Source of the DNA: an uncultured Gammaproteobacteria bacterium
GTDB lineage: Bacteria; Patescibacteriota; Microgenomatia; UBA8517
Length of the DNA: 64,000 nt
Assembly (NCBI GenBank): GCA_964429215.1
Contig: CAYSAY010000001.1
Coordinates: 182,127-246,126, forward strand
Direction: 5' to 3'
In this document: in pieces, positions 2,595 to 13,860 of the stretch
Numbering within the stretch: the stretch's first letter is position 1
Layout: each line of letters begins with the position of its first letter
Position numbers and translations under genes: made by a program
Notes under the pieces: model-generated
What the model saw: the letters and a program-made list of their open reading frames with translations, nothing else
Told to the model about the DNA's origin: nothing
Database searches by the model: none

Positions 2595-3830
2595 ATGAAC
2601 AAATTTAAAAAAGTAGTAGCCTCTGCAATAGCTGCAGGATCCCTTTTAGTCAATGGATTCATGCCAGTTTTTGCTCAAACAACAATAGTACTTTCAGGAA
2701 ATGGAACAAATTCAGATAACACTGCAAATGTTTCAGTTACTCAAAGCACAGTTGTTACTCAAAGCAATAATGCAGATGTTACAAATAAAGTATATGCCGA
2801 TTCCAAAACAGGAGATAACAAAGCAGAAGATAATACAGGTGGAGACGTATCAGTTAAAACTGGTGACTCAGATGTAACTGTTGATGTTAAAAACACACTT
2901 AATAATAATTCTGCAAACGTTGACTGTTGTGGAGCAACAAATACTGATGTACTTATTTCAGGAAATGGATCAAATAGTGATAATGATGTAAATCTTACTT
3001 TAGGTGGAGATAAAAATACCTTAGTAACACAAAACAACAATGCTGATGTATACAATCACGTTGATGTGGATTCAGATACAGGCGATAACGATGCAGAAGA
3101 CAACACAGGTGGAGATGTGTCAGTCGAGACCGGTGATGCAACTGTAAACGTAAACGTAAATACAACTGCTAATGCAAATTCTGCCAGAGTTGGTGGGAAT
3201 GGAGAAGCAGGTTCTTTATCAGCAAAAATCCTAGGAAATGGTACATCTAGTGATAACGAAATCGATTTAGACTTTGGTGGTTCACTTTGGATAACTCAAG
3301 ATAATGAGGCTGATGTGGATAACAAAGTTGATGTTGATGCCGAAACTGGAGATAACAATGCAGAAGATAACACAGGTGGAGAAGTATCAGTCAATACTGG
3401 AGACGCCGATGTTACCGTTGACGTAGAAAACGATGTCAACTTCAATTGGGCAGACGCTGACTGCGGATGCTTATTGAATGATGTGTTGGCAAAGATCGAT
3501 GGTAATGGTAGCGATACAGATAACGATATCACTGCAAATCTTGGACAAACACTTGGTGTAATTCAAGATAATAGTGCAGGTGGAGAAGGAGAATTGGAAA
3601 ATACTGTCTATGCTGATGCAGAAACTGGAGAAAATGATGCTGAAGATAACACTGGTGACCCTGGTGCTGATCCATCAATTGAAACCGGAGATGCAACAAC
3701 AGAGGTAGCGCTTGATAATTCAGGCAATTCCAATGTTTATGGTCAAACACCAGATTGGGAATTCCCAGGTACTGGATTTGATTTCCACTTTTCGTTCGAT
3801 TTGAGCGATTTGTTGGACTGGTTAAGTTAA
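2595..3830 (+). CDS. Secreted repeat protein, paralog family A (NG..S.N...TGDN.AEDNTGGDVSV.TGDA modules with CC motifs)
   Basis: Signal peptide MNKFKKVVASAIAAGSLLVNGFMPVFAQ; at least four internal repeats; paralogous to 3935, 6129 and 7707(-). Confidence 0.6.
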   Translation: MNKFKKVVASAIAAGSLLVNGFMPVFAQTTIVLSGNGTNSDNTANVSVTQSTVVTQSNNADVTNKVYADSKTGDNKAEDNTGGDVSVKTGDSDVTVDVKNTLNNNSANVDCCGATNTDVLISGNGSNSDNDVNLTLGGDKNTLVTQNNNADVYNHVDVDSDTGDNDAEDNTGGDVSVETGDATVNVNVNTTANANSARVGGNGEAGSLSAKILGNGTSSDNEIDLDFGGSLWITQDNEADVDNKVDVDAETGDNNAEDNTGGEVSVNTGDADVTVDVENDVNFNWADADCGCLLNDVLAKIDGNGSDTDNDITANLGQTLGVIQDNSAGGEGELENTVYADAETGENDAEDNTGDPGADPSIETGDATTEVALDNSGNSNVYGQTPDWEFPGTGFDFHFSFDLSDLLDWLS

Positions 3831-3848
3831 TTATGTAATTTTTTGGAA

Positions 3849-3885
3849 CTAGAGTTGCTTACTTACACTTCAGTAAGCACTCTAG
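3849..3885. terminator. Intergenic hairpin (about 14-bp stem with one bulge) between surface-protein genes
   Basis: CTAGAGTTGCTTACT..AGTAAGCACTCTAG inverted repeat. No U-tract, so terminator function is uncertain. Confidence 0.3.
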
Positions 3886-3934
3886 AATCCAAGAGATAAA
3901 GAAGTAAAAAGATAGAAAAGATATAAAAATAAAA

Positions 3935-6136
3935 ATGATTAATAGAATTAAAAAAATACTTTCAGTAATTACTGTTATTGCTTTGCTGTTTACAAATACA
4001 GGGTTAGTTTTTGCTCAATCAATTCCTACTCCTCCTCCGGCACCAACAATGCCATATGTTCCAACTGCACCACCAGCACCAACAATGCCACCTGTTCCAA
4101 CTGCACCACCAGCGCCAACAATTGCACCAACTAATGCTCCTACTCCGCCACCTGTTCCAACTGCACCACCAGCGCCAACAATTGCACCTACAATAACACC
4201 AACTCCTGTCCAAACTAGTGTACCTATTATAGAGCCGATTTTACAACCAACTGCCACTCCTTTAGTTTTGTCACAATTTGTTGATACTGAGAATTTAGGT
4301 GGACAAGAAGCAGATGGTGGAACTGGCTCAAACTCTATTAATACTGGGAATGCTACAAATGATGGATTAATTGTAAATGATTTAAATAGTAATTTGTCTG
4401 CTGTTCTTAGTGACGGAACAGGAAATGGAAGTGCTGAAATTACTAACACTGGAAATGGTGCTGGGTCAACAAATTCTGGATCAGCAGTTGTTGTAAATAA
4501 TACAAATACTGATCAATCTAATTTGGTAGTACTTGAAAATGGGTTGTACCAAAGCGCTGTGACTGGAGATAATTCAGCAAGTAAGAATACTGGAGGCGAC
4601 TCAGCTATTACTACTGGAGATGCTAATGTGACTGGTACGATATTAAACTCAGTTAATACTAATGTAGCAGGTGTTTTGGTTTCTGAGTTTAATGTTATGA
4701 ATGATACTACGGGAGATATAATTCTTGATTTTGTAAATAATTGCATAACTAATTGTGGAACACCTTCAAATACTACTATTAAAAATTCAGGTAATGGTGC
4801 TGATTCTACAAACACTGGATCATTAGATGTAGTAAATAACAATTCAACTAATCAATTAAATGATGCAGTCATTGCAAATGAAATGGATTTGTTTGCAAAT
4901 TCTGGTAATAACGTAGCAGATAAAAATACTGGTGGCGATTCAACAATTGTGACAGGAGATGCTAATGTTGCAGCAAACTTATTGACGTTTGCTAATAATA
5001 ACATTGCAGGTAATGTTATCTATTCTGTTGTTAATATTTTTGGAGATTTGATAGGCGATATTATATTACCTGAAGAATTACTTGCAGGATGTTGCGGAAC
5101 AAATCCTGTAACTCTAGCTAATTTAAATAATGGTGCAGATTCTAATAATGTAACTAACTATTCAAATGAAATAACAGATTCTTTAACACAAATTAATAAT
5201 TTAGAGATTGAAAATAATTTAATCTTTGACGCTGCAACTGGACAAAATGATACTTATGCAAATACAGGTGGAGATTCATCAATTATAACAGGGGATACAA
5301 GTGTGAATGCTAAAGTATTAAATGTTGCAAACAATAATATAAGTGGTGAAAATATGTGGCTTGTAATAGTTAACCAAGCCGGTAGATGGATAGGGAAAAT
5401 ATTAGGTACTGCGGACGGTACAAATATTGCTGGAAGTGAAGGCTTTGAATTTGAAGTAGATGAAAATGGAGGAGTAACAGTTGCAAATGCTGGAAACGGT
5501 GCAGGATCAACCAATACTGCAACCTACAATGAAACAAATAATAATGATACAACCCAAGTTAATAATGCAAAAATTGTTAATAATTTGGATTTGGCTGCAA
5601 ATACAGGGGGTAATTCTGCATCAAAAAATACAAACGGAGATTCGTCTGTGACTACGGGTGATGCTAATATCATCGCTAATATAGTCAATTTTGTTAACAA
5701 CAATATAACAGGAAGTGGAAAATTAGTTGTAACAGTTGTTAATGTGTTTGGTAGTTGGTTGGGTGATTTTGTAGGACCTGGATTTACAAAAGAAGTTCAA
5801 TCGAATGAATCGCCAAGTAATACGGCTATTGGTGGTAGTGATATGCATGTCAATACTAATAGTCAAACTGATAATAACGAGAAAACTAGTGGTTCAAGTA
5901 ACTCAGTAGTTGGTAATAATTCAGTTGTCAAATTAGTTTCACCTGTAGCTTTTATACCAAAGACTAAAGTTCTAGGAGCTAAAATTAGTGTAGTAGACGG
6001 TAATCAGTTGGCAAATAATACAGAAATTGACTCCGATAAAAAGAAAGTTATTAATATAAATTTCGCTTGGGTATTAGCTGCACTTTTCCCAATAGGTATC
6101 GTATCAATTATTTTACGAAGAAGATCACATGCTTAA
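3935..6136 (+). CDS. Large (733 aa) cell-surface repeat protein with a Pro/Thr-rich linker and a C-terminal TM anchor; paralog family A
   Basis: Signal peptide, then PPAPTMP.VPTAPPAPT tandem repeats, then family-A modules (NTGNGAGSTN...TGDNSASKNTGGDS..TGDANV) and CCG motifs. C-terminal TM plus RRRSHA tail. Confidence 0.65.
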   Translation: MINRIKKILSVITVIALLFTNTGLVFAQSIPTPPPAPTMPYVPTAPPAPTMPPVPTAPPAPTIAPTNAPTPPPVPTAPPAPTIAPTITPTPVQTSVPIIEPILQPTATPLVLSQFVDTENLGGQEADGGTGSNSINTGNATNDGLIVNDLNSNLSAVLSDGTGNGSAEITNTGNGAGSTNSGSAVVVNNTNTDQSNLVVLENGLYQSAVTGDNSASKNTGGDSAITTGDANVTGTILNSVNTNVAGVLVSEFNVMNDTTGDIILDFVNNCITNCGTPSNTTIKNSGNGADSTNTGSLDVVNNNSTNQLNDAVIANEMDLFANSGNNVADKNTGGDSTIVTGDANVAANLLTFANNNIAGNVIYSVVNIFGDLIGDIILPEELLAGCCGTNPVTLANLNNGADSNNVTNYSNEITDSLTQINNLEIENNLIFDAATGQNDTYANTGGDSSIITGDTSVNAKVLNVANNNISGENMWLVIVNQAGRWIGKILGTADGTNIAGSEGFEFEVDENGGVTVANAGNGAGSTNTATYNETNNNDTTQVNNAKIVNNLDLAANTGGNSASKNTNGDSSVTTGDANIIANIVNFVNNNITGSGKLVVTVVNVFGSWLGDFVGPGFTKEVQSNESPSNTAIGGSDMHVNTNSQTDNNEKTSGSSNSVVGNNSVVKLVSPVAFIPKTKVLGAKISVVDGNQLANNTEIDSDKKKVININFAWVLAALFPIGIVSIILRRRSHA
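4020..4200 (+). repeat. In-frame tandem DNA repeat (about 45 nt unit) encoding the P/T-rich linker
   Basis: Repeated gttccaactgcaccaccagcNccaacaatNcc units visible directly in the sequence. Confidence 0.6.
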
Positions 6137-7160
6137 ACGATTATTCATTTTAACACTGCTCCCTGCTGTGTTTTTATTTTATGTTGGTCCATTTATTCCA
6201 TACGTTGTAGCTCAGGAATTAATTATTTCAGGAAACGGAAGTAGCTCTACTAGTGAAGTTTTAGTAAACACAAATAATACAGAAAGTATTAGCCAATCAA
6301 ATACGGCAAATATTGTAAATAACATTGAAGTAATTGCAAATACTGGTAATAATAATGCAAGTGATAATACTTCAGGAAGTGTAACTATTTCAACTGGTGA
6401 TGTCTTAACTGATTTGGTTGTTAGTAATAATATTAACAGTGCTACTGTTAATAATTCTTGTTGCGATGTAGAAAATAATTCTTCAGTCTCTATAGTTGGA
6501 AATGGTAGTGGATCTGATAATAGTGTCGTTTTAAATATAAATGATGAAAATTCCATTGTTGTGAATCAGTATGCAAATATAGAAAATAAAGTAATTGGAA
6601 CTGCAAATACAGGAAATAATAGTGCAAATAACAATACAAGTAGTGAAGTGACAATTCTTACAGGAGATATTAAAGTTAATATCAAAATTAATAATTACCC
6701 AGTCAATACTTCTTTGGTTAATTTTGGTAATAGTCCGTTAAGTGTATTTGCCAACATTTCTGATAATGGTGCAAACACAACAAATTACGTATCAGCAAAT
6801 ATCAATAAACCTAAATTTGTTGGTGTTAATAATTACTTTGTTGCTAATAATATTTCTTACTGGGATTTAAAAACAGGTGGAAATACTGCTAGTGGTAATA
6901 CTTCGAGCAAAGTATTAATTAAAACTGGGAATGTGTTTTTTGATTTACTAATTTCAAATGCAGCTAATATAGGTGGAGTTGATTTAGGTTGTTGTGGTGT
7001 TGATCCAGATGATCTGGATGATCCCAATGATCCTGATGACCCAAGTGACCCAGGTGGTTATATAGGTGGCGGAGGTGGGAATGGGGGGTCTACTCTTGGA
7101 AGTTCAATTAATTTTAATGGTCCTGCAATATTAGGTTTGTCTGCAACGTCGTCAAAATAA
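6129..7160 (+). CDS. Secreted repeat protein, paralog family A, with a Gly-rich and PDDP-rich C-terminus
   Basis: Signal peptide; ISGNGSSSTSEV...NTGNNNASDNTSGSVTISTGDV and CCDVEN/CCGVDP motifs. Start overlaps the upstream gene end, suggesting an operon. Confidence 0.6.
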   Translation: MLKRLFILTLLPAVFLFYVGPFIPYVVAQELIISGNGSSSTSEVLVNTNNTESISQSNTANIVNNIEVIANTGNNNASDNTSGSVTISTGDVLTDLVVSNNINSATVNNSCCDVENNSSVSIVGNGSGSDNSVVLNINDENSIVVNQYANIENKVIGTANTGNNSANNNTSSEVTILTGDIKVNIKINNYPVNTSLVNFGNSPLSVFANISDNGANTTNYVSANINKPKFVGVNNYFVANNISYWDLKTGGNTASGNTSSKVLIKTGNVFFDLLISNAANIGGVDLGCCGVDPDDLDDPNDPDDPSDPGGYIGGGGGNGGSTLGSSINFNGPAILGLSATSSK

Positions 7161-11837: not shown

Positions 11838-12650
11838 ATGAATAATGATATAAAAAAAACAAAAAATATTGAGGAAGTGAAATTATTACTTAGTCATAAA
11901 CGGCTTAATATGTTTGAAGCGTTATCTAATAAAAATTGGTTTAATCAAACTGATTTTGAAGTTGTTAAAAAGATTTTTTCATTGCCTGATGATTTTGATG
12001 GATACCTTAATGATTTAACAACAAGAAAGGATGAATATGGAGGATTAATTGTAAATAAACTGCATGATTTATTGCCTGGAAATTATTCTGTTTTATCTGT
12101 ATTTGAAGTTGTTTCTATTCAGACAGCTCAGCCATTTACTCATGAATACATGACTTGGAAATTTGGTCGTGATCAGGGATATAGAGGATTGATATTATTC
12201 GAAGAAGAAGGAGAAGTAAAATTCTTTATGTTAAGAAAAGCAGAAAAATTTGCAATTGGAGAGAGTGTTTATGAAACAATTGGAACTTTTATTAAAGAAA
12301 AACATATTAGTGAATCGTCGATACCTGATGAAGTTCAACACCAAATAGATAAAGAGTTGGGTATGAAAGATGTAAAAGTTAACAAATTTATACCACTTGG
12401 GAAAATTGCAGTTGATCCTGTCATGGCTAATTCAACACCTTCACTTTATGCTGTTACGATTGATTTGCCAGGGGATAATGATTTAGAGGAAATTAGAAAA
12501 AAAGTATATAAAACAAAACCAATTTCATTCAATTTAATTATTGAGCCTATTGAAAAAATCTGGGAATATGTAAATAAAACTGATGAGTCTTTTTTCTTGG
12601 CTGTTGTTTCAAGACTTACTTCTATGGGAATAATTAAACCCCAGGCTTGA
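11838..12650 (+). CDS. Hypothetical protein
   Basis: Long ORF with native AT-rich codon usage; no family recognised. Confidence 0.45.
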   Translation: MNNDIKKTKNIEEVKLLLSHKRLNMFEALSNKNWFNQTDFEVVKKIFSLPDDFDGYLNDLTTRKDEYGGLIVNKLHDLLPGNYSVLSVFEVVSIQTAQPFTHEYMTWKFGRDQGYRGLILFEEEGEVKFFMLRKAEKFAIGESVYETIGTFIKEKHISESSIPDEVQHQIDKELGMKDVKVNKFIPLGKIAVDPVMANSTPSLYAVTIDLPGDNDLEEIRKKVYKTKPISFNLIIEPIEKIWEYVNKTDESFFLAVVSRLTSMGIIKPQA

Positions 12651-12829
12651 CAAATACGGATTTATACCCTATAATAACGACTCAAGACTTAAAAAGTTAT
12701 ACTTTAAAAAATAAATTCCTCAGATAGCACCCTTATAACGGTTTTAACCGTTGAATCTCAAGAAATTAAGAGGTGCCCAAACAAATCGTGTTTTTTCAAA
12801 ATTCATATAGACCTAAAAGGAGATTTACC

Positions 12830-13609
12830 ATGTCTGATTTAAATGCTTTACTACCGATTGAAGCTGCCGATCTCGGTACGCTGTTGTCGACCCGTCCTGA
12901 CTCAACACCTCAGCGCGTTAAGTTCTGGATAGATGATGTTCCGTTCGAAACACCTGTTCACAGCTTTGTGATGCGGCTCGTTGTGCCCGGTCGTGCGGAT
13001 GTTCAGATTACCTATGGTTACAATCCTACGATCGGTGCCACCGGGAATGATGACATCACGCGTCGTGAACTGGGTGGAGTAATCTCTGCTTATTTCACAA
13101 TGATGGACGGACAGCTTTGGGTTGGAATGCTTAACCAGAAGCGCCCGTGTCAGGATTTGGTAGAATCGGTTCTCAACGTTATTCGCGCGTACTACAGCCC
13201 TGAAAAGTCCCGCTTATCGGTGGCTACTGAACGTGCGAAAGAACGCGCTGGCGTCCCCACCACTTTGCTGGCGATTCCACTTCCATGCGCTATTGGAAAT
13301 GCCAACAATGCAAATGTCGAAACGTGGGATGATCATGGAAATACCCAGTTCGCCTTTTATGTTCCGCCTGAAATGCTGATCTTGGCACCGAATGGCGCGT
13401 ACATATTTGACGATACTGTTGTGACCGCTTTTGACCCTGATGCTGGCAAAATCCTCGGATTGGAATTCCATCCTTGGAAAGTTGCGGCGCGCGTCGGCGA
13501 TGATTTCACTCGGGCAATTGTTTCACCCTTATTGGCTTGGTTGGATGATGTCCAGCAGATCGCCGTTATGGTGAACAATGAATTTGATCCGAGTGTGATG
13601 ACCAAGTAA
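12830..13609 (+). CDS. Hypothetical protein on a compositionally foreign island (much higher GC, Proteobacteria-like codon preferences)
   Basis: ATG at 12830 is preceded by AAAGGAG. Codons are CTG/CGT/CCG-rich, unlike every other gene in the window. Antisense frames stay open, as expected for GC-rich coding sequence. No recognisable family. Confidence 0.55.
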   Translation: MSDLNALLPIEAADLGTLLSTRPDSTPQRVKFWIDDVPFETPVHSFVMRLVVPGRADVQITYGYNPTIGATGNDDITRRELGGVISAYFTMMDGQLWVGMLNQKRPCQDLVESVLNVIRAYYSPEKSRLSVATERAKERAGVPTTLLAIPLPCAIGNANNANVETWDDHGNTQFAFYVPPEMLILAPNGAYIFDDTVVTAFDPDAGKILGLEFHPWKVAARVGDDFTRAIVSPLLAWLDDVQQIAVMVNNEFDPSVMTK

Positions 13610-13637
13610 TGTAAGTTTTGTTTGGGCCTCTCTAATG

Positions 13638-13704
13638 TTCCTCACCACCCCCAAAAAGTTTAATAGCGACTGCGCTGTTGAGCCAAAGGTGGTGAGGAAT
13701 TTTT
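13638..13704 (+). terminator. Hairpin terminator downstream of the foreign gene
   Basis: Perfect 12-bp inverted repeat TTCCTCACCACC...GGTGGTGAGGAA followed by TTTTT; the loop is about 38 nt. Confidence 0.5.
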
Positions 13705-13860
13705 AGAAAGTTTGCCTGTGCGGTATAGAATAAAATTTTTGAATTAAAAACTCAAAAAACAATAAATCTATACGCACGGCAAGAACAAATTCGATTGTTA
13801 ATCTCCATTAAAATACTTCTATACTTGCATTAAATATATCTATCTAGTAACATTTCCATT

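Follow-up and report, generated by a model that had tools for sequence, protein, structure and literature searches.

How does a single GC-rich gene come to stand in an AT-rich patescibacterial genome, and how long has it been there? We examined this question in a stretch of 64,000 nucleotides (nt), hereafter the window, from contig CAYSAY010000001.1 (positions 182,127 to 246,126, forward strand) of an uncultured bacterium placed in the Patescibacteriota (Microgenomatia; UBA8517). The gene in question, an open reading frame (ORF) referred to below as the cargo ORF and occupying what we call the slot, had been read in a preliminary description as a very recent horizontal acquisition of proteobacterial or phage origin or, alternatively, as a chimeric assembly join. 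Our analyses point instead to a hypervariable cassette that has long occupied a fixed RNA frame and whose GC-rich, A-poor composition would be maintained by selection on the mRNA; we give this reading a probability of about 0.5.

The compositional break is confined to this one gene, as the preliminary description had noted. The cargo ORF has a GC content of 0.497 (0.585, 0.415 and 0.492 at the first, second and third codon positions, or GC1, GC2 and GC3), against 0.318 for the whole window, and lies 7.2 standard deviations above the rest of the 64 kb in windows of 780 nt, the runner-up among which reaches 0.415. Neighbouring genes have a GC3 of 0.18-0.25, and the cargo ORF is alone among 57 crude gene calls of the window in exceeding 0.29; a similar GC elsewhere, which the preliminary description held to count against its reading, was not seen among these genes. 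The flanking genes are AT-rich and lie on the same strand as the cargo, again as described. The codon shift towards CTG, CCG and GCG was likewise recovered, together with raised ACG, ATC and TTC, when codon usage was compared with that of neighbouring genes. Among arginine codons, AGA accounts for 56% in the neighbours and for 0 of 13 in the cargo, and CGC for 1% and 6 of 13, respectively. Because GC1 and GC2 are shifted as well as GC3, the amino-acid composition has moved too, with lysine at 2.7% against 7.5% and arginine at 5.0% against 2.8%.

An assembly chimera has this composition jump, and nothing more, in its favour. The same protein with the same flanks was found on at least eight independently assembled contigs from different samples (ENA and Logan, up to 264 kb), and orthologs in other samples share the junction architecture of the window. 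A chimeric join is therefore rejected at the assembly level and effectively refuted, with next to no probability left to it. Six orthologs of the cargo protein (58-84% identity) were recovered when 5.8e9 proteins were searched; they can be aligned over their full length, numerous residues being invariant, and the ratio of non-synonymous to synonymous substitution rates (dN/dS) between cargo orthologs is approximately 0.1-0.2. The cargo gene is thus real and under purifying selection. Among the compared loci and contigs, which carry labels of the form L007, the same slot is occupied by orthologs in L007 (83% amino-acid identity) and L009 (58%); the neighbourhood of the L011 ortholog (69%) differs and its upstream partner gene is the same, and most of the longer ortholog contigs carry the cargo in the same slot.

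These orthologs allowed the age of the composition to be judged. Synonymous divergence (dS) of the flanking genes between contigs is saturated (1.3-3.6), and identity at four-fold degenerate sites of the cargo falls to 0.24-0.46 between distant orthologs. GC is nevertheless 0.48-0.51 and GC3 0.46-0.51 in all seven genes (the window and its orthologs), inside flanks with a GC of 0.28-0.39. Polarised substitutions from G or C to A or T and in the reverse direction number 9:8, 7:10, 4:15 and 7:10, the two youngest pairs giving 9:8 and 4:15, whereas neutral decay to the host GC3 of about 0.2 would predict a ratio of about 4:1; no excess of GC-to-AT change was observed. Raised GC is also found in more remote relatives: the cargo of L017 (39% identity) has a GC of 0.505 beside a gene of 0.37, and the deeply divergent positional ortholog of L020 (hhalign probability 96%) has a GC of 0.59 in a genome of 0.46, each being 0.13 above its host. 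The constancy of GC3 despite saturation, the balanced flux and the raised GC in L017 and L020 together indicate a stationary, gene-specific offset rather than an un-ameliorated relic, and by these sequence comparisons the cargo composition is stationary across lineages.

Very recent acquisition from a GC-richer donor, with the gene still un-ameliorated, would account for the atypical composition, the E. coli-like codon table and the sharp boundaries. It is effectively refuted, and we leave it very little probability, since syntenic orthologs at saturated divergence have the same composition and since no donor-like homolog appeared in any collection searched. No homolog from a GC-richer genome or phage was found in these collections, nor any of more than 40% identity outside AT-rich Patescibacteria-like contigs, and the protein had no match in scans of PHROGs and PADLOC. 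The sole gammaproteobacterial match in a scan of genome contigs was a chance pattern match within pheT, and a scan of viral contigs for the conserved leader element described below (the 5' arm) gave 24 chance matches, and neither a 3' arm nor a GC island accompanied any of them. The search for tRNA and tmRNA genes was likewise negative, and a Pfam listing of neighbours contained no recombinase within 10 kb on either side of the slot. The preliminary description had proposed to look for short direct repeats at the junctions; the repeats present there are inverted. The locus therefore resembles a classical compositional island in its atypical composition and in a sharp GC and codon break confined to one gene; recency, decay towards host composition, amelioration flux, mobility genes and an identifiable donor are all absent, and the composition is stationary at saturated divergence.

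The direction of the shift bears on two further explanations. At four-fold degenerate sites, host genes contain A, C, G and T at frequencies of.39,.07,.08 and.46, and the window cargo and its orthologs (all seven) at.13-.18,.25-.31,.17-.24 and.34-.41. The shift is strand-asymmetric, A falling from 0.39 to 0.15 and T just from 0.46 to 0.36. This loss of A with retention of T argues against GC-biased gene conversion, by which a recombination hotspot would raise GC locally and which should be strand-symmetric. The locus does recombine, in that cargo is swapped, and between the window and L007 third-position identity is 0.69 for the segment made up of the cargo and the 270-amino-acid (270-aa) gene upstream of it (window 11838-13609, L007:5031-6799), compared with 0.47-0.61 for other flanks; this suggests a more recent common ancestor of that segment, i.e. 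recombinational allele exchange. The crossover flanks, namely the 270-aa gene, the untranslated regions (UTRs) and the surroundings of the arms, are however AT-rich (GC3 0.18), and we regard biased conversion as very improbable.

Expression-linked codon selection, under which extreme expression would make C- and G-ending codons translationally optimal, is the second of these explanations and competes with a cause in the mRNA. The gene does have a perfect promoter, a consensus Shine-Dalgarno sequence and a probable terminator of its own; C-ending codons of two-fold boxes are raised, AGA and ATA are avoided, and A-ending codons are depleted with T-ending ones kept. Translational optimization does not readily explain why GC1, GC2 and amino-acid composition are shifted too, nor the rise of CAG, CCG, GCG, ACG, TCG and CTG, which we would not expect from it in an AT-rich reduced genome. 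Moreover, probably abundant surface proteins encoded behind near-consensus promoters in the same window (e.g. 2595-3830) have a GC3 of 0.15-0.22. We therefore consider codon selection improbable.

What is conserved around the cargo ORF is a transcription unit with complementary ends (Table 1). A perfect TTGACA-17-TATAAT promoter occurs once in 64 kb, upstream of the cargo; equivalent promoters lie 123-155 nt before the ATG in L007, L009, L011 and L015 and are present also in L018, L051 and L052. The motif AAGACTTAAAAAGT lies near the predicted transcription start in the leader, and further downstream the motif AGAGGTGCCCAAACAA (12769-12784), part of the 5' arm, is nearly invariant across lineages. 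The 5' arm and the 3' arm, the latter directly behind the stop codon, are complementary in sequence and can form a helix of 16-19 bp. The same pair was found in L007, L009 (19 bp including two G.U pairs), L011/L015 and L014, and the 3' arm also in L016, L022 and L017. This closing helix was part of the minimum-free-energy fold of six out of six full-length transcripts, and 95.6% of helix cells were paired across six sequences, compared with 38-58% when the partner was slid. An A-U pair is compensated by G-C in L011/L015. Nearly every non-Watson-Crick cell is a sense-strand G.U pair; read on the opposite strand these would be A-C mismatches, and the pattern speaks for a helix in RNA more than for an inverted repeat in DNA. 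At the same position in L020, a helix of wholly different sequence (8+10 bp) encloses the equivalent gene. When 131 genes in nine loci were scanned for helices between upstream and downstream sequences, the five best were all at GC3-outlier genes. Complementarity between UTRs that is conserved or covarying among orthologs, as in known 5'/3'-UTR interactions, is thus present here, and we infer that the arms pair in vivo.

Table 1. Features of the cargo locus, in window coordinates
Feature	Position	Strand	Description
270-aa gene upstream of slot	11838..12650	+	AT-rich, GC3 0.18; family of 8 proteins in 5.8e9
Sigma-70-type promoter TTGACA-17-TATAAT	12647..12675	+	12/12 match; overlaps stop codon of 270-aa gene
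5'UTR, ~147 nt	12682..12829	+	start predicted from promoter position; leader conserved in L007, L051, L052
Leader hairpin AACGG-TTTTAA-CCGTT	12737-12752	+	within 5'UTR
5' arm AGAGGTGCCCAAACAAATC	12769..12787	+	nearly invariant in orthologs though synonymous sites saturated
Exchangeable segment (inner leader + ORF)	12801..13618	.	non-homologous sequence instead in close relatives
Shine-Dalgarno AAGGAG	12817..12822	+	7 nt before ATG; conserved in orthologs
Cargo ORF	12830..13609	+	259 aa; divergent ADP-ribose-pyrophosphatase-like Nudix fold, degenerate Nudix box
3' arm TTTTGTTTGGGCCTCTCT	13616..13633	+	begins 7 nt after stop codon; complementary to 5' arm
Hairpin HP1 + T-run	13638..13704	+	perfect 12-bp stem 13638-13649 / 13688-13699, 38-nt loop, then TTTTT
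Hairpin HP2 TTGCCTGTGCGGTATAGA...TCTATACGCACGGCAAGA	13711..13785	+	~37-nt AT-rich loop; between cargo terminator and rfbF-like gene

The architecture is not specific to the cargo family, because a second gene of L020 has a helix of its own. This gene (L020:2196-3083, also L021:1171-2058) encodes an unrelated protein of 295 aa, hydrophobic in an N-terminal segment, and has a GC of 0.57 against 0.46; its 5'UTR and 3'UTR form a 13-bp helix (ACAAGGCATACAC / GTGTGTGCCTTGT) that begins 3 nt after the stop codon.

Structure within the ORF was assessed by comparing the folding of each ORF with that of permutations of its own synonymous codons. The resulting z-scores of the cargo ORFs were -2.4 (window), -2.4, -1.9, -2.1, -4.7, -3.6 and -7.5, compared with values mostly between -1.4 and +1.4 for 17 control genes, among which the GC-rich second gene of L020 was a striking exception (-5.3). 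The target of selection seems to be general compaction and pairing potential rather than one particular structure, and we infer that RNA structure and GC content are linked.

The contents of the frame are exchangeable. In a blastn comparison of the window with L051, homology stops at 12800 and restarts at 13619, with flanks 82-89% identical. The flanks of L051 and L052 are 82-90% identical to those of the window, of L007 and of each other, and the 270-aa genes of L051, L052 and the window fall into one 90%-identity cluster. Between the same arms, L051 and L052 carry a non-homologous ORF of 259 or 260 aa with a GC of 0.45-0.50, and identity between these two cargo proteins is just 35%, against 88-89% for the flanks. 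Cassette replacement within conserved synteny is thus shown by sequence comparison, and the discrete single-gene cargo envisaged in the preliminary description is borne out. Such hypervariability is compatible with an arms-race function.

The alternative cargo ORFs (L051:3573-4355, beginning MSQDWKVGE, and L052:3442-4221, beginning MYQIGQNTRYG) match no family and have two to three members in 5.8e9 proteins. Ahead of the main cargo of L052 (L052:3015-3396), two directly repeated copies of the 5' arm AAGAGGTGCCCAAACAA enclose an additional AT-rich ORF of 91 aa. In L018 (6801-8400) the frame is empty: the TTGACA-17-TATAAT promoter and the leader are present, no ORF lies between the arms, and these are fused as GTGCCCGAA|TTCGGCCTCTCT, forming the palindrome GTGCCCGAA|TTCGGCC. 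At least two small GC-rich ORFs of 99 and 110 aa follow, each succeeded by a hairpin; they have a common leader GTTCGTCAGAATCAAAAATC and a common trailer ATTC(C/T)GACGGCAA, with 9 nt of complementarity between the two.

Several observations weigh against selection on a closed mRNA as the cause. ORF structure is uneven, with z-scores of -0.7 in L014, -0.9 in L015, -0.1 for the L052 cargo and -0.6 and -1.3 for the small ORFs of L018, and a specific conserved fold in the ORF was unsupported (RNAalifold covariation term -0.34). Only two pairs covary within the main clade, as the arms are so conserved. The composition of the cargo is also like that of an ordinary genome of about 50% GC. Furthermore, the boundaries of the cassette fall exactly at the arms, and L052 has two copies of the 5' arm, as would also be expected of DNA recombination sites.

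This last point leads to the main rival, a cassette system at the DNA level, in which the arms would be recombination sites of an unrecognized integron-like or hairpin-targeting exchange, the cargo would come from a mobile pool with its own composition, and the RNA helix would be a by-product. Non-homologous cargo between identical arms in flanks that are 88-90% identical is what such a system should produce, and the direct repeat in L052, the 'empty site' of L018 with its fused arms and its array of small ORFs sharing leader and trailer repeats, and the toxin-antitoxin genes inserted beside the slot in L007 and L024 all fit it. On the other hand, integrases, transposases and tRNA genes are absent from the 10 kb on either side, and the arms contain neither a compact attC-like site nor a GTTRRRY core. 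The sense-strand G.U pairs favour RNA, in L020 each of the two GC-rich genes has different arms of its own, and no inverted orientation was seen among more than ten assemblies, so that the locus, with no recombinase nearby, does not resemble an inverton either. A mobile pool with its own composition is further at odds with the lack of a GC-rich reservoir among 15 billion proteins and with the way in which cargo GC follows host GC (0.59 in a host of 0.46, 0.50 in a host of 0.32). We consider the DNA-level system unlikely, though it is the strongest competitor.

Under the reading that we prefer, selection on the mRNA within a fixed frame, the cassette would be one allele in a dedicated, strongly promoted transcription unit. 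The frame kept across lineages would consist of promoter, leader, 5' arm, 3' arm just past the stop codon and a pair of 3' hairpins, with the ORF as its swappable part. Pairing of the arms in the mRNA would draw the entire ORF into a closed loop, and the GC-rich, A-poor state would be held against the AT pressure of the genome rather than being a relic of recent foreign origin. The likeliest cause would be selection on the mRNA, a compact self-folding ORF allowing the end-to-end helix to form, and the outcome may be a 'closed-loop' transcript that is nuclease-resistant and/or coupled in translation from termination to initiation. More tentatively, as a possibility that we hold to be more probably wrong than right, the locus may represent an undescribed kind of bacterial gene cassette, an RNA 'expression frame' that hosts interchangeable hyperdivergent ORFs and whose closed-loop mRNA couples termination, re-initiation and nuclease protection.

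The gene model and the remaining elements of the unit were examined alongside. The true start is the ATG at 12830 and not the GTG at 12773 given by the ORF lister, all orthologs opening with MSD or MND after a conserved Shine-Dalgarno sequence. The Shine-Dalgarno sequence AAGGAG and the perfect 12-bp stem reported in the preliminary description are both present. An upstream ORF, beginning either at the GTG of position 12788 or behind the Shine-Dalgarno-like 5' arm, was rejected for lack of conservation. A large non-coding RNA mistaken for an ORF was rejected on the dN/dS of 0.1-0.2 and the coding-type order GC1>GC3>GC2, and an overlapping antisense gene on the seven stop codons in the in-register antisense frame of the window. 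That frame is fully open in L011:3231-4016, L017:41-703 and L020:7190-7933 (minus strand), because TTA, CTA and TCA codons are absent there; since it is closed in the window, we read the open frame as a by-product of codon usage. Near the predicted start, a short motif AAGACTTAAA(A/C/G)AGT (window 12691-12706) also occurs in the leaders of L007, L011, L020, L051 and L052, being kept even in the deeply divergent leader of L020, and may be a 5'-terminal stem-loop. The first 3' hairpin, HP1, varies in stem sequence by lineage with its complementarity kept, and is probably the terminator. The sequence of HP2 is conserved in L007, L009, L016, L022, L051 and L052 and covaries in L016 and L017, the L017 counterpart being of different sequence; HP2 may be part of the cargo unit or, alternatively, of the leader that precedes the rfbF-like gene downstream. 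It had no match in Rfam, in which no family was found at the gathering threshold nor at E<=5.

The preliminary description recognized no family for the cargo protein, and direct scans with Pfam and NCBIfam thresholds gave no match. A profile search of 1.84e9 representatives, however, returned 189 relatives of about 220-250 aa, and 53 of 70 aligned relatives matched Pfam NUDIX (PF00293), this profile search being the only link of the cargo protein to the family. The cargo profile also matched ADP-sugar and ADP-ribose pyrophosphatases in the PDB over the Nudix-box region. An AlphaFold2 (AF2) model built with the 70-sequence alignment had a predicted local distance difference test score (pLDDT) of 91.7 and a predicted template-modelling score of 0.86; the larger alignment was needed, as seven close orthologs alone gave a pLDDT of 29. 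The model has the Nudix alpha/beta/alpha fold. Foldseek returned 115 PDB matches at E<=1e-3, the top ones being chains of Nudix proteins and ADP-ribose pyrophosphatases (ADPRases), and the closest structures were a Bacillus methanolicus Nudix protein, Rv1700, the ADPRases of Klebsiella pneumoniae and E. coli, and NUDT5 (probability 1.0, E about 4e-6). The protein is thus a divergent member of the Nudix fold.

Its Nudix box is degenerate. The region IRAYYSPEKSRLSVATERAKERAG departs from the consensus PRGFLxPGExHFExAxRExxEExG, and the aligned segment AYYSPEKSRLSVATERAKERAG does not conform to GX5EX7REUXEEXGU: other residues stand in place of the Gly, of the first Glu, of the RE pair and of one of the two Glu in EE, and invariance across the clade is limited in this segment to E134, A136 and R139. 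We therefore file the protein as Nudix-fold and ADPRase-like and not as a demonstrated hydrolase. It has in common with the ADPRases and ADP-sugar pyrophosphatases (NudF/ADPRase, Rv1700, NUDT5, the B. methanolicus Nudix protein) a fold of two domains, an N-terminal beta-sheet and the Nudix alpha/beta/alpha core, and its genomic setting among nucleotide-sugar genes fits this group. It differs from them in the box, where G is replaced by A, E by K and REUXEE by ERAKER, and in extra C-terminal helices, and its catalytic competence is doubtful. To judge from the predicted fold and the neighbouring genes, the protein probably binds a nucleotide-sugar or ADP-ribose, or else acts as a weak hydrolase. 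In L024, the same cluster encodes a more canonical Nudix relative, which lacks the arms, has a z-score of +0.8 and is just modestly raised in GC.

The 270-aa family, the Nudix-like cargo (residues ~213-238) and the alternative cargo of L052 are of similar length and have a common C-terminal pattern: W, about eight residues, D, two to three residues, F or T, then A-x-V-x2-L. They could be extremely diverged homologs, although profile comparisons were not significant (E 0.19 and 0.73). The 270-aa neighbour was colinear with the Nudix profile without significance (hhalign E 0.19), and no homology to that profile was detected for the alternative cargo of L051 and L052.

The slot lies in a conserved patescibacterial cluster of sugar-nucleotide and cell-envelope genes. 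The synteny that recurs on related contigs comprises CAP, an 87-aa gene, galU-like, MFS, rfbF/G/C-like, rmlD-like, GT2 and trmD genes. The 270-aa gene adjoins the slot in the window, L007, L011, L018, L020/21, L051 and L052; L009 and L024 lack it. A metagenome-assembled genome labelled 'Patescibacteria group bacterium' encodes a homolog of its product with 66% identity. Otherwise the window is mostly a region of cell-envelope glycosylation, encoding glycosyltransferases and large membrane proteins. Near-consensus promoters with one mismatch each (1506-1534 and 2398-2426) stand ahead of signal-peptide, probably surface, proteins, the genes of which (2595-7160) have ordinary AT-rich codons (GC3 0.15-0.22). 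Downstream, the region is an insertion hotspot: a HepT/MNT (HEPN-nucleotidyltransferase) toxin-antitoxin pair directly follows HP2 in L007/L008 (L007:6994-7783, corresponding to window ~13792-13824), and a HicB-like gene lies at the corresponding place in L024.

Parts of this architecture have counterparts in known systems. The mRNAs of hok-type type I toxins are inhibited by 5'-3' fold-back; they are about 400 nt long, encode small toxins and have an antisense partner. By analogy, end-to-end pairing at the cargo unit may give a compact, stable and possibly translationally gated mRNA; none of the hok-type size, small toxin or antisense partner was seen there. Integron cassettes and variable cargo hotspots share with the locus a promoter-proximal slot, interchangeable single ORFs, imperfect inverted repeats, occasional tandem cassettes, empty sites and cargo composition unlike that of the host. 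Cargo is swapped among relatives, two ORFs stand behind the L052 promoter, and several small ORFs of L018 have repeats in common. Unlike in integrons, no integrase appears in the Pfam listing of neighbours and there is no attC, the repeats lie on both sides of the ORF and not just behind it, the pairing shows signs of acting at the RNA level, and one type of cargo is kept in the slot over deep divergence.

The closest parallels for the helix come from hbs and icaR. In Bacillus subtilis hbs, a monocistronic and strongly expressed mRNA, a 14-bp long-range helix between the 5'UTR and 3'UTR limits RNase access (PMC5737220). The helix predicted here is of similar length, but its 3' arm lies immediately behind the stop codon, and the ORF that it encloses can be swapped and has an aberrant composition. 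In Staphylococcus aureus icaR, a 3'UTR segment pairs with a Shine-Dalgarno-like 5'UTR segment, occluding the functional Shine-Dalgarno sequence and recruiting RNase III (PMC3868564). The arms AGAGGUG (5') and CUUCU/CUCUCU (3') recall this arrangement; here, however, the real Shine-Dalgarno sequence lies about 45 nt downstream of the arm, and the L020 arms are not Shine-Dalgarno-like.

Compositional islands are routinely read as recent transfers, and at this locus composition alone gives the wrong age and the wrong origin. A hypervariable single-gene slot, a covarying end-to-end mRNA helix and a gene-specific compositional equilibrium, which are not normally found together, are joined at this locus; loci of the kind number a handful in public data. 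If the link between them is causal, it would provide a testable model of how mRNA architecture shapes gene composition in AT-rich reduced genomes, and a signature with which to search uncultivated bacteria, namely a GC3 outlier combined with complementarity between 5'UTR and 3'UTR. Finally, if the arrangement is general in Patescibacteria, compositional islands in these organisms would mark RNA-level function and not foreign origin.

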